The position numbers and the translations under genes were made by a program. Below, in pieces: positions 34,301 to 35,893 of a DNA stretch of 64,000 nt. The notes below the pieces were generated by a model. It was not told the origin of the DNA. It saw only the letters and a program-made list of their open reading frames with translations, and searched no databases. This DNA comes from an uncultured Bacteroidales bacterium (GTDB lineage: Bacteria > Bacteroidota > Bacteroidia > Bacteroidales > VadinHA17), in assembly GCA_963840965.1 (NCBI GenBank), contig CAWJAW010000002.1, forward strand, positions 328,185 to 392,184, read 5' to 3'. Numbering within the stretch: the first letter of the stretch is position 1; each line of letters opens with the position of its first letter.

Positions 34301-35893
34301 TTCGGAATTCTGATATTTCTTATTTATACCCATATCGATAAGTTCATCTGGAAGCTGATCACCTCCATTCTCGTTCTGATAATCGTGCCGGCGGCAACAT
34401 GGTTCGTAATGAACAGCCTCAGAAAAGCCAGGGAAACGGTTATCCCTCCCGACGTGCCCATAAAAATCCGGGTTCAGAGTCTTGTAAAGATCTACGAAAG
34501 AGAAAACAGGTGGAGCCGCGAATGGAAGGCCGGCGCACGGATAAGGGAACGGCTCGGTCTAAAAACGCACTTCAGGAAATGGAAAGACCTGATGACCGTT
34601 TCATGGGAACTCCCCCTGTTTGCCTTTATGATTTATTTTACTTACTTCTATCTCAACTCAGGATTCTGGATATTCTTCTTCAGTGTAATTGTATGGTTTT
34701 TCCTTTCCGCCATCTGGAACCAGTTCAGGGAACTATTCAAAAACCTTTCCTCTGAATCCGGAAGGAAGATGCCTGCAAGGCTTATCCCGGTCATAAGTTT
34801 CGTAGTCTTCTGGATGGTGCCCCTGCTGAACCTGTTTATGTTCCAGCTGAAATGGGACAACATCGCGGTTGTAATTATTATTGGCGTCCTCTGGTTCACC
34901 GGGCTGTTCATCTACACTACCGGACAAAAACTGAGTGAGGAAAATATCGATATATACCGGCTCGAAGGGAAATTCAGGGGACTGAGAAAAACAATCTACA
35001 AAATTGTCGCTGCAGTTCCGATGATCGGCAAGAAGCTTAAGCCTTTCAAGGCCCTGAGCTGTGTATCTCTCAACATAGAAAACGGAATGTTCGGACTGCT
35101 CGGACCAAACGGTGCCGGAAAAACAACCCTCATGAGAATTATTTGCGGGATCCTTGAGCAGAGCTACGGAAAGGTCTGGATCAACGGACTCGACACCCAG
35201 CTGAAGCGCGAGGAGCTTCAGGGCCTCATAGGCTACCTTCCCCAGGAATTCGGAAGCTATGAGAACATGACCGCCCACGAATACCTCCATTACCAGGCTA
35301 TGCTGAAGAACATCATCGATTCAGAAACCAGGGAAGACAGGGTGACTTACGTGCTGAAAGCAGTCCACATGGATGAACACAGGCATGAACGGATAGGTTC
35401 ATTCTCGGGAGGGATGAAGCAAAGGATGGGAATAGCGATGATACTCCTTCATCTGCCCAGAATACTTGTTGTCGATGAACCTACAGCCGGACTTGACCCC
35501 AGGGAAAGAATAAGATTCAGGAACCTGCTTGTGGAACTGAGCCGCGAAAGGATAGTTATCTTCTCCACTCACATCATCGAAGATATCTCAAGCTCGTGCA
35601 ACCAGGTTGCAGTTCTCAACAAAGGCAGGCTGAGATATCTTGGAAAACCCTCTGATATGACCAAAGAGGCCGTTGGACGAGTCTGGCAGTTTAAGATCCC
35701 TGCCTCCGAATTTACAAAAATGGCAGCCAGCCATCTCGTTGTCCATCATATGTCGGAAGGCGACAGTATAAGAGTTAGGGTCATTTCGGAATCACAACCC
35801 TGGGCTTACGCAGTGACCACAGCCCCCAACCTGGAGGATGCATACCTGTGGCTTCTAAGGAGAAAAGATATCAACCATATTAACGGAATATGA
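31139..35893 (+). CDS. RND (AcrB-type) permease 2 fused in frame to extra TM helices and a complete ABC ATPase domain (1584 aa)
   Basis: RND part aa 1 to approx. 1035 (TM4 [20 protein letters not shown], TM10 [23 protein letters not shown]). Two TM helices (nt approx. 34265-34414). ABC strand [16 protein letters not shown] (34460-34504). Four-TM insertion (approx. 34505-35038). Walker A [9 protein letters not shown] (35102-35128), Q-loop YLPQE, signature FSGGMKQR, Walker B [11 protein letters not shown], H-loop FSTHII. No stop codon anywhere in the ORF. Confidence 0.85.
   Translation: [1584 protein letters not shown]

Follow-up and report, generated by a model that had tools for sequence, protein, structure and literature searches.

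Can an ABC ATPase domain be built when the segment that looks like its first strand lies on the far side of four membrane helices? Few folds are as well conserved or as much studied as that of ABC ATPase domains, and a short loop between strands beta-1 and beta-2 is one of their usual traits. The locus described here encodes a transporter of the RND type joined to an ABC ATPase in which that short loop has no match, as 177 residues stand between the two strands. We consider it probable, at roughly 80%, that the product is a functional ABC ATPase split at beta-1 by a four-helix membrane insertion.

Within the 64,000-nucleotide stretch of uncultured Bacteroidales DNA analysed here (the window), an intact open reading frame on the + strand encodes a 1584-aa RND::ABC fusion protein, arranged as an AcrB-type RND transporter, two linker transmembrane (TM) helices, beta-1, the insertion and the remaining ABC ATPase. 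Its parts, with the evidence for each, are as follows.

31139 to 35893, + strand: whole RND::ABC fusion gene (intact ORF; Pfam ACR_tran and ABC_tran; orthologues)
31142 to 34231, + strand: AcrB-type RND transporter domain, aa 2-1031 (PF00873; aligns to MexB, MdtF and AcrB)
34277 to 34414, + strand: two linker TM helices, aa 1047-1066 and 1071-1092 (hydropathy; AlphaFold2 helices; loop length)
34460 to 34501, + strand: predicted displaced beta-1 with A-loop tyrosine Y1119, aa 1108-1121 (motif, AlphaFold2, splice tests, covariation, relatives)
34508 to 35038, + strand: 177-aa insertion in the beta1-beta2 loop, aa 1124-1300 (missing from the nearest stand-alone ATPases; length conserved)
35039 to 35668, + strand: remaining ABC ATPase core (Pfam ABC_tran, motif positions, PDB and NCBIfam similarity)
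35669 to 35890, + strand: C-terminal beta-rich domain, aa 1511-1584 (AlphaFold2 strands, model residues 476-510)

Pfam places ACR_tran at aa 2-1031 (E 1e-165) and ABC_tran at aa 1309-1450 (E 3e-27). The RND domain covers positions 3-1018 of the 1021 in PF00873 and is thus a full-length body, with hydrophobic clusters where a 12-TM body with two large periplasmic loops would have them. The linker helices correspond to AlphaFold2 helices at model residues 6-26 and 30-59, and the outside loop between them is 3-4 aa long in all homologues. The original prediction had set these helices at approximately 34265-34414; the two helices and their end hold, with the start found by hydropathy at 34277. Likewise, the 16-residue upstream segment (aa 1108-1123) does begin at 34460, but its 16 codons end at 34507 rather than 34504, and the resumption of the fold at KPFKAL...GPNGAGKTT ends at 35128 as proposed but starts at 35039, not 35042.

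Orthologues of 1589 aa (L003), 1567 aa (L004) and 1612 aa (L009) were found in metagenome-assembled genomes (MAGs) independent of the query, the first two from Bacteroidales and the third from Pseudomonadales. The whole module is kept in 120 close homologues and also in 91 clusters at 50% identity; about 14 of the proteins in these clusters are full-length, at 1550-1585 aa, and have the module near aa 1095-1300. The earlier view of a functional protein as opposed to an accidental fusion is supported by this conservation of the whole module across homologues, clusters and independent MAGs. Judged by sequence conservation, the predicted RND::ABC fusion with its split ATPase is more than chance.

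Beyond the insertion, the ATPase is complete in its catalytic motifs, all placed by motif position apart from beta-2, which starts at K1301.

aa 1301-1313, + strand: beta-2
35102 to 35128, + strand: Walker A GPNGAGKTT, aa 1322-1330
35234 to 35254, + strand: Q-loop YLPQEFG, aa 1366-1372
35402 to 35425, + strand: ABC signature FSGGMKQR, aa 1422-1429
35462 to 35497, + strand: Walker B/D-loop with the catalytic Glu, aa 1442-1453
35561 to 35575, + strand: H-loop, with STH at aa 1476-1478

Walker A, Q-loop, signature, Walker B and H-loop are near-invariant in 79 homologues. The best NCBIfam matches are GldA and DrrA, each below its equivalog cut-off, and the best PDB sequence matches are ABCA4/3/1/7, TM_1403 and NosF, the same set that Foldseek returns; LptB is also among the similar ATPases in these comparisons. 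An SGGM.QR signature and GldA/DrrA profile matches are typical of the type-V (ABC-2) class, and the ATPase belongs to the DrrA/GldA/NosF/ABCA clade of type-V (ABC-2) exporters. Foldseek matches span nearly the whole of NosF and of 4YER (TM_1403), both of which have a C-terminal domain.

The strand that should precede this core appears to be the upstream segment, which we call segment A. In every member of the family, down to ~24-25% identity, it carries the canonical ABC strand-1/A-loop motif I.I.NL.K[IV][YF], and the A-loop position, Y1119 here, is aromatic (Y or F) throughout the alignment. Y1119 lies 203 residues before Walker A, against ~23-27 for the aromatic residue of ordinary ABC ATPases. 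AlphaFold2 (aa 1040-1584, 79 sequences, mean pLDDT 81.7) models aa 1110-1121 as a 12-residue beta-strand with pLDDT ~76-82, and all other strands of the model sit in the ATPase. The structural check called for by the original prediction thus returned a strand, and docking on beta-2 is deduced from the AlphaFold2 secondary structure together with a covarying residue pair, although docking of segment A in AlphaFold2 might reflect simply its resemblance to canonical strand 1. That pair, 1111-1312, is 13th among 115,440 long-range pairs, with K/R set against E/D and Y against N, in a register that fits the canonical beta1-beta2 hairpin and was judged post hoc; it is the sole usable pair from 100 related sequences whose covariation is mostly noise, and may carry phylogenetic signal. 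Foldseek alignments of the fusion model, at 210-330 columns, exclude the 178-residue gap, so the displaced strand is not reportable by that route.

Splice tests bear on the same segment. Against the GldA profile, the core alone scores 172.2 bits and aligns from profile position 16; with segment A spliced on, the score is 177.9 bits from position 2, a gain of 5.7 bits. The native contiguous sequence scores 174.1 bits. Similarly, when the stand-alone paralogue at 20951 was compared by blastp, its alignment to the native sequence began no earlier than residue 18, and that to the construct with segment A spliced in began at residue 1. The model and these comparisons support aa 1108-1121 as the putative strand beta-1 of the fused ATPase, predicted to pair with beta-2.

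Between the two strands, from N1123 to K1301, lie 177 residues, one fewer than the approximately 178 first proposed, and comparison with the paralogue at 20951 bore out that it has no counterpart there. The nearest uninterrupted ATPases have a beta1-beta2 loop of 4-5 residues and read contiguously through it, which sets the insertion in that loop. It holds a basic helix, four TM helices and return helices.

34508 to 34552, + strand: basic helix right after beta-1, aa 1124-1138 (AlphaFold2 helix, model residues 85-99)
34604 to 34726, + strand: first TM hairpin, aa 1156-1172 and 1176-1196, outside loop NSG (hydropathy, AlphaFold2 helices)
34781 to 34924, + strand: second TM hairpin, aa 1215-1235 and 1242-1262, outside loop QLKWDN (hydropathy, AlphaFold2 helices)
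34925 to 35038, + strand: basic cytoplasmic return segment, aa 1263-1300 (net charge +8.5 mean; AlphaFold2 coil/helix)

All four hydrophobic helices that had been foreseen are present, and the intra-hairpin loops have the lengths given for them, 3 and 6 residues, constant in 27 of the 27 diverse homologues aligned. Conservation across homologues extends to the insertion and its hairpins, with a length of 198-227 aa down to ~24% identity. The diverse alignment of the insertion (A2) has no conserved run of 7-10 columns. The basic helix bears a conserved motif, R[FW].REW..G..IR.RLG, and in the first hairpin W1156 is invariant and W1177 nearly so. Scanned against Pfam, the insertion gave scattered noise only, and against PDB sequences it gave no match at E up to 10.

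Charges fit the proposed topology across the family. The cytoplasmic loops carry mean net charges of +5.7, +3.1 and +8.5 (+3 in the loop ahead of the second hairpin), and the outside loops, of 3-6 aa, are near 0. The loops thus obey the positive-inside rule, as had been suggested, and this family-wide pattern supports the claim that all ABC segments stay cytoplasmic, within a topology drawn from hydropathy, charge bias and AlphaFold2 helices. The return segment carries two strand-1-like decoys, segment B (aa 1270-1279) and segment C (aa 1287-1297), and is partly deleted in two homologues (P0162 and P0173). Segments B and C were raised as the true strand 1 for their canonical or Wzt-like spacing to Walker A and were rejected as such on AlphaFold2, splice tests, homologues and outgroups.

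Relatives place the split in context. The nearest uninterrupted ATPases, 43-50% identical, have the same strand-1 motif 32 residues before Walker A; in the split family the distance is 196-216 residues. A genome scan with the alignment A1, which drew on generic ABC motifs, returned mostly ordinary ATPases, which were used as outgroups. Short proteins such as P0087, P0081 and P0061, which start after segment A, were set aside as evidence for separate genes, their contigs being frameshift-ridden with IF-2 and NusA split. Sister RND::ABC fusions (L005 and P0332-P0335) also join an RND transporter to the same ATPase clade (44% identity) and have an insertion in the same loop, preceded by a single strand-1 motif, LQIEIDHLTRIY. 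In contrast to the split family, their insertion is a non-membrane one of 40-60 aa without TM helices, and the two-helix linker is absent. In L005, a 922-aa permease-like gene between two RND genes takes the place of the 238-aa gene found downstream of the fusion. The sister fusions are an intermediate, undescribed group.

The operon of the gene encodes a TolC-like channel and a membrane-fusion adaptor besides two RND paralogues in tandem, which are 27% identical to each other. The fusion's stop overlaps the start of the next gene.

35890 to 36606, + strand: gene for a 238-aa membrane protein, overlapping the fusion stop at its start (conserved downstream; AlphaFold2; Foldseek; weak Pfam)

This gene lies directly downstream in L001, L003, L004 and L009. 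AlphaFold2 models the protein with pLDDT 77 and pTM 0.78, and its best 13 Foldseek matches are type-V membrane domains, at TM-scores of 0.47-0.57 and weak E-values of 0.016-0.6, with PmtD, NosY, CcmB, ABCG25 and Wzm among the best. Matches to ABC2_membrane in Pfam are weak and sub-threshold. On the strength of the model, the protein is likely a type-V (ABC-2) membrane domain and a putative partner of the fused ATPase. It falls into >5,000 sequence clusters, all unnamed.

Could the ATPase instead be contiguous, with strand 1 supplied by B or C just upstream of beta-2, and segment A an unrelated relic of an old N-terminus, an edge strand or a contact site for the RND body? We think this quite unlikely. 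B and C are loosely strand-1-like and are kept in close homologues; NCBIfam and PDB local alignments reach into aa 1281-1294, GldA profile positions 5-6 align at aa 1293-1294 within C, and the native contiguous sequence scores 1.9 bits above the core by itself. Yet AlphaFold2 renders both as coil or helix and not as strand, and the deletions in P0162 and P0173 remove part of B or C. The aromatic residue of B is lost in divergent members, C has none at the A-loop position, and tblastn matches of uninterrupted relatives begin at A1305, not within C. Spliced to the core, B is ignored by the GldA profile (172.2 bits, a gain of 0) where A adds its 5.7, and the first 17 residues of the paralogue go unmatched in blastp unless A is spliced in. 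The sister group, with its one strand-1 motif upstream of the insertion, has nothing resembling B or C.

Very improbable, too, is a conventional TMD-NBD half-transporter joined to the RND protein, with the six extra helices (2+4) as its membrane domain, which would make segment A a coupling element in the TM2-TM3 cytoplasmic loop, outside the ATPase fold. A classic half-transporter does have six TM helices ahead of its ATPase, and the six here are strongly conserved and rich in aromatics. But a likely type-V membrane protein, encoded separately and translationally coupled, is conserved downstream, the hairpins with their 3-6-residue outside loops match no known ABC membrane domain in Pfam or PDB sequences, and segment A reads in sequence as strand 1 rather than as a coupling helix and is a strand in the model; it is also retained by the sister group, whose insertion has no TM hairpins. 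The six helices could yet contribute to a translocation pathway, which is compatible with a split ATPase. An artefact or decay, in which mis-assembly or a frameshift joined RND, membrane protein and ABC genes or the ATPase is pseudogenised, might be suspected from the many database homologues that are fragments of 350-950 aa and from the neighbouring RND1 ORF, which runs ~65 codons beyond its usual stop. The fragments, however, come from short contigs or from long, frameshift-ridden assemblies in which housekeeping genes such as IF-2 and NusA are split too, whereas independent MAGs and clusters repeatedly yield full-length proteins of 1550-1612 aa, the catalytic motifs are all invariant and conservation runs through linker and insertion. 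This explanation is effectively refuted.

We therefore return to the ATPase split by a membrane insertion and propose the following path for the chain. After TM12 of the RND body, the two linker helices would return it to the cytoplasm, where aa 1108-1121 form beta-1 and Y1119 would serve as the A-loop tyrosine that stacks on adenine. The chain would then leave the ATPase through the basic helix and, in two tight hairpins, make four membrane crossings before the basic helical segment brings it back; from K1301 on, beta-2 follows, then Walker A and the remaining domain, with beta-1 presumably pairing back on beta-2 as in an ordinary ABC domain. The insertion fills a 4-5-residue loop that faces the membrane interface in type-V transporters. 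Most likely the ATPase dimerises and works with the downstream 238-aa type-V membrane protein, the six extra helices perhaps anchoring it beside that membrane domain and the RND body. With the upstream RND paralogue, the adaptor and the outer-membrane channel, these parts may form one envelope-spanning assembly, in which the A-loop strand could pass ATP-driven movement on to the membrane helices. A conserved four-helix module inside the fold would mean that an ABC domain can withstand having its chain threaded through the bilayer. It would tie the nucleotide-sensing A-loop strand directly to membrane helices, and such a link would be a new route for coupling ATP binding to membrane events.

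Insertions in the beta1-beta2 loop are known to us only as short, soluble elements, namely the gate helix of Wzt and the regulatory insertion of CFTR. This, and the lack of any description of an ABC ATPase split by membrane helices in the literature searched, agrees with the view that a membrane-embedded insertion in this fold is unusual. In Wzt, the gate helix lies in the beta1-beta2 connection, at the membrane interface in type-V ABC transporters (PMC6379404). Like the fusion, ATPases of the Wzt/TagH(TarH)/KpsT type have an extra element between beta-1 and beta-2, directly after the A-loop tyrosine, and the basic helix of the fusion, aa 1124-1138, sits where Wzt has its gate helix, a likeness confined to position. 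Unlike the fusion, their insertion is ~20-30 soluble residues, as against 177 that cross the membrane four times, and Wzt, TagH and KpsT are absent among the top sequence and fold matches of the fused ATPase in PDB, NCBIfam and Foldseek.

CFTR is informative as to whether such a split can work. Its NBD1 carries an insertion of 30 aa between strands 1 and 2 (residues 404-435, known as the regulatory insertion), and when the channel is cut there, into 1-432 and 433-1480, ATP-dependent gating is intact (PMC2217481). As severed CFTR still gates, strand 1 can come from a distant segment of chain. The insertion thus separates the same two strands in NBD1 and in the fusion, but that of CFTR is short, mobile, soluble and regulatory, with a PKA site, whereas that of the fusion is a conserved bacterial membrane module.

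The fusion also shares features with two families of exporters. As to type-V exporters (NosFY, PmtCD, CcmAB, ABCA, ABCG), the fused ATPase is nearest to NosF, TM_1403 and ABCA in sequence and fold, and the 238-aa protein models as their membrane domains (PmtD, NosY, CcmB, ABCG25 and Wzm). In these exporters, by contrast, the ATPase is a soluble subunit or is placed after its own membrane domain, and we know of none for which TM helices within the ATPase fold or an N-terminal RND transporter have been described. With AcrAB-TolC and MdtABC, the operon has in common a channel, an adaptor and two RND paralogues, as with mdtB/mdtC. That an ABC ATPase is able to power tripartite efflux is known from MacAB-TolC. 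To our knowledge, the inner-membrane component of tripartite pumps is either RND or ABC; the fusion differs in having both on one polypeptide and in having Asn at the D408 and K940 positions of both RND paralogues. Nothing relevant on an RND-ABC fusion was found in the literature searched.

The design of the fusion suggests a pump that uses ATP plus the proton gradient. It is tempting to speculate, and we do so tentatively, that this is a composite pump, in which either an ATP-driven type-V ABC exporter, made of the fused ATPase and the 238-aa protein, is hard-wired to a heteromeric RND/adaptor/outer-membrane-channel pump or ATP gates or powers the RND body. In the former case, the four-helix insertion would be a structural and mechanical bridge, and substrate from the cytoplasm or inner leaflet might be expelled over both membranes in one machine. 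In the latter, ATP binding and hydrolysis would gate or power an RND body that is without the canonical D408/K940 relay residues, and a 2:1 RND2:RND1 heterotrimer could supply the two ATPase domains for a dimer. If its parts do cooperate, bacterial efflux would have its first pump that draws on both of its main energy sources, and, if true, the long-discussed hand-over from inner-membrane exporters to RND pumps would become directly testable. The split-ATPase family is abundant in Bacteroidales-type metagenomes.

The RND residues themselves are of note in this respect. The AcrB-type proton relay (D407, D408, K940, R971, T978) is incomplete in the fused domain, where alignment to MexB and MdtF shows D407, R971 and T978 kept and D408 and K940 each replaced by Asn. 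The unfused paralogue, RND1, has by eye the same VDN/VNN pattern, which puts Asn at the AcrB D408 and K940 positions. The RND1 ORF in the window is also longer than is usual at its 3' end, by the ~65 codons mentioned above.

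The 1584-aa fusion protein RND2::ABC contains a catalytically complete ABC ATPase that is interrupted in its beta1-beta2 loop: a conserved membrane insertion of four helices sits there, with the first strand and the A-loop on its upstream side.

Layout of the fusion protein
31139-35893, + strand: fusion gene (RND2::ABC), an intact ORF of 1584 aa
31142-34231 (aa 2-1031), + strand: full-length AcrB-type RND domain (Pfam, E 1e-165)
aa 1047-1066 and 1071-1092, + strand: two hydrophobic linker helices after the RND body (translation and hydropathy)
aa 1108-1123, from nt 34460, + strand: segment quoted in the original prediction (translation)
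aa 1156-1172, 1176-1196, 1215-1235 and 1242-1262, + strand: four hydrophobic helices of the insertion (hydropathy)
from aa 1301 (nt 35039), + strand: ABC fold resumes after the insertion (translation)
aa 1309-1450, + strand: ABC_tran domain (Pfam, E 3e-27)

By translation and hydropathy, every element of the original prediction is present, and its coordinates stand apart from two ends that were one codon off (34507, not 34504, and 35039, not 35042). KIYEREN is followed by 177 aa between N1123 and K1301, as against approximately 178 estimated before, and the ATPase then resumes; the insertion helices come in two pairs, the first linked through 3 residues and the second through 6. The catalytic motifs are all intact and, in the homologue alignment, invariant. 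Every motif of an ABC ATPase is found, with the contiguity of beta-1 and beta-2 as the sole exception.

On a rival reading, which the tests below make unlikely, the ATPase would be contiguous, its real beta-1 lying just upstream of beta-2, and the displacement of segment A (aa 1108-1121, with A-loop tyrosine Y1119) would then be wrong. Two stretches are candidates, each with a point in its favor.

Alternative beta-1 candidates
aa 1270-1279: candidate B, at the distance known from Wzt/TagH-type ATPases
aa 1287-1297: candidate C, reached by local alignments from NCBIfam and PDB searches

The Pfam ABC_tran model starts at beta-2 and is thus uninformative on beta-1. In a diverse alignment (27 members, 24-64% identity), the aromatic position of B is not maintained and some members have lost part of B or C. 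Segment A retains the motif typical of ABC N-termini, I.I.(R/Q)NL.K(I/V)(Y/F), then R(F/W).REW, its aromatic residue always present. An AlphaFold2 model of aa 1040-1584 (mean pLDDT 81.7), built on a moderately shallow alignment of 79 sequences, likewise has B as coil and C as helix but aa 1110-1121 as a 12-residue strand (pLDDT ~76-82) followed by a helix (aa 1124-1138), a secondary structure that agrees with the displaced strand first proposed. Beta-2 (aa 1301-1313) is modelled as a 13-residue strand, and six long helices fall where hydropathy places them. No other strand is modelled outside the ATPase and its C-terminal domain, so segment A would have its only possible pairing partners there.

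Spliced constructs scored against NCBIfam also favor segment A as beta-1. With the GldA profile, the core from K1299 alone gave 172.2 bits from profile position 16 and A plus core gave 177.9 bits from position 2, whereas B plus core stayed at 172.2 bits, B being ignored; the native contiguous sequence gave 174.1 bits. When the stand-alone ATPase paralogue at 20951 is the blastp target, the native sequence picks it up only at its residue 18 (208 bits), and the A-spliced construct aligns with it end to end from residue 1 (212 bits). In a covariation analysis of 100 non-redundant sequences, mostly noise, pair 1111-1312 ranks 13 of 115,440 long-range pairs, with 1312 the best partner of column 1111 (K/R with E/D, Y with N). 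Its register (i+j = 2423), read after the fact, sets Y1119 opposite K1304 as a canonical beta1-beta2 hairpin predicts; we regard the pair as no more than supportive.

Many ordinary ATPases in a one-genome-per-species scan begin to match the fusion protein at A1305, and relatives differ in the spacing of motif and Walker A.

Distance from strand-1 motif to Walker A
32 residues: closest stand-alone ATPases (loci L010 and L006, the latter MDIEIEHLVKDFGRVRALDDVSL)
72-95 residues: sister RND::ABC fusions (locus L005, proteins P0332-P0335)
196-216 residues: four-TM-insertion family (the fusion protein and relatives)

The sister fusions have a single strand-1 motif (LQIEIDHLTRIY), a 40-60-aa insertion without TM helices and then KALDMFSLDI.... 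Comparison of uninterrupted ATPases with the window protein shows that the insertion falls within the loop of 4-5 residues that follows the A-loop tyrosine. L005 (409-12923 of CAYQOX010000030.1, an uncultured bacterium MAG) has its genes in the order RND1, permease-like protein (922 aa, much of it in a large extramembrane domain), RND2::ABC (1437 aa), outer-membrane factor. It has a 45-aa soluble beta1-beta2 insertion and neither the two-helix linker nor the gene for a 238-aa membrane protein that follows the fusion gene in the window; this sister architecture may be an evolutionary intermediate.

The insertion and its hairpins are conserved in homologues: across diverse members the insertion measures ~198-227 aa, and the outside loops never depart from 3 and 6 residues. 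A search with aa 1043-1584 found 120 close relatives (53-92% identity), mostly from Bacteroidales metagenomes, with RND sequence upstream in every one long enough to show it. Among 1.84 billion cluster representatives, 91 clusters match aa 1100-1310 alone; ~14 of these are complete proteins, 1550-1585 aa long, that carry the module around aa 1095-1300. Short homologues starting after segment A were rejected as separate genes; they come from short contigs or from long, frameshift-broken assemblies, in which IF-2 and NusA are likewise split. The one-genome-per-species scan gave two full Bacteroidales orthologues, L003 (74%) and L004 (53%). The complete architecture recurs at only ~27% identity in L009, a Pseudomonadales MAG (JAKUTH010000058.1, 5370-10900; 1612 aa), in the order RND, two TM helices, KLEVRYLTKSYG, four TM helices and ATPase, with a 231-aa membrane protein next. 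Given this gammaproteobacterial copy, the design is not confined to Bacteroidales and is either ancient or spread by horizontal transfer. Other matches are named Latescibacterota (P0346) and Spirochaetales (P0068). P0075 (678 aa; ENA contig of 2669 nt) has no RND part: it opens with residues 1-140 of a 238-aa-protein homologue, which run straight into linker helices, segment A, four-helix insertion and ATPase. It is seen on a single short contig and could be natural, as a recombinant or permuted variant, or else a product of chimeric assembly.

Charge bias and hydropathy agree with the predicted positive-inside topology. Over the 27 diverse sequences, mean net charge is +5.7, +3.1 and +8.5 for the presumed cytoplasmic stretches aa 1093-1155 (including segment A), 1197-1214 and 1263-1300, and near zero for the three presumed outside loops of 3-6 residues. 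The RND C-terminus is cytoplasmic in this transporter family, so with an even count of 2+4 helices all ABC segments stay inside, as the original prediction argued.

The fused ATPase belongs to the type-V (ABC-2) class, in the DrrA/GldA/NosF/ABCA clade. Its nearest profiles are GldA and DrrA, and its nearest solved structures by sequence (ABCA1/3/4/7, T. maritima TM_1403, NosF and LptB) are also its nearest folds.

Neighboring genes
35890-36606, + strand: 238-aa membrane protein, its start overlapping the fusion gene stop
20951-25260, + strand: stand-alone ATPase paralogue, 39% identical to the fused ATPase, then a 1139-aa protein

The 238-aa protein, whose predicted model has a pTM of 0.78, is likely the membrane partner of the fused ATPase. 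The gene keeps its position in L001, L003, L004 and L009. Its family (5557 clusters with E <= 0.001) is unnamed throughout and without Pfam domains, and matches to Pfam ABC2_membrane are sub-threshold. The best structural matches, at TM-scores of 0.47-0.57, are PmtD, NosY, CcmB, ABCG25 and Wzm, every one a type-V membrane domain; as the protein models as such a domain, its family would be an uncurated ABC-2 permease family. The conserved operon order is ABC-2-like ATPase paralogue, 1139-aa protein, TolC-like channel, adaptor, RND1, RND2::ABC and 238-aa protein. The 1139-aa protein starts with about seven TM helices, continues into a large extramembrane region and ends in Golvesin_C, and with the paralogue it looks like a second ABC-2-type system heading the same operon. 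This pair is conserved at the operon head in L001-L004 and L009, and a weak similarity links the 1139-aa protein to the 922-aa one of L005. Farther downstream, the minus strand (36871-37824, -) encodes a 317-aa radical-SAM-like protein with a CNLRCVYCQN motif; L003 has it at the corresponding position (65% identity).

In Wzt, a gate helix moves ~8 Å on ATP binding and the A-loop tyrosine stacks on adenine (PMC6379404). The fused ATPase shares only the gate-helix position and lies outside the Wzt clade. CFTR NBD1 carries a 30-aa insertion at the beta1-beta2 point and gates normally with the chain cut there (PMC2217481), so strand 1 can come from a remote chain segment. Full-text literature searches yielded no account of an RND-ABC fusion, and the insertion matches no Pfam family and no solved structure among PDB sequences. 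To our knowledge, TM helices within the fold of an ABC ATPase have not been described. We therefore rate the insertion as an undescribed expansion of a known type, the beta1-beta2 loop insertion, here grown into a membrane module; the fusion architecture that holds it is likewise undescribed.

We propose a model where beta-1 would dock back onto beta-2, with the basic helix after it at the interface in a gate-helix-like position. The two hairpins would lie against both the RND body and the 238-aa membrane domain, anchoring the ATPase and possibly relaying movements of the A-loop and RecA subdomain to the membrane. Two ATPase domains would have to meet for ATP hydrolysis, and we speculate that a heterotrimer of two RND2 and one RND1 would let them do so. 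MdtB2C, a two-to-one RND heterotrimer, is an analogue.

The fused RND has a full AcrB-type body with Asn at the AcrB D408 and K940 positions (alignment to MexB and MdtF), as does RND1 by eye, the motifs in the two paralogues being VDN and VNN. Energy coupling in this RND clade may thus differ from that of AcrB. Of the AcrB proton-relay residues, D407, R971 and T978 are retained in both paralogues (31139-34231 and 27964-31090), again by eye for RND1. The RND1 ORF (27964-31311, +; 1115 aa) has a tail (31090-31311) running ~65 codons past the stop of its L003/L004 orthologues (...TGANKVIP*) and overlaps the fusion gene start by 172 nt; the overrun may be genuine, or it may reflect a sequencing error or the loss of a stop codon.
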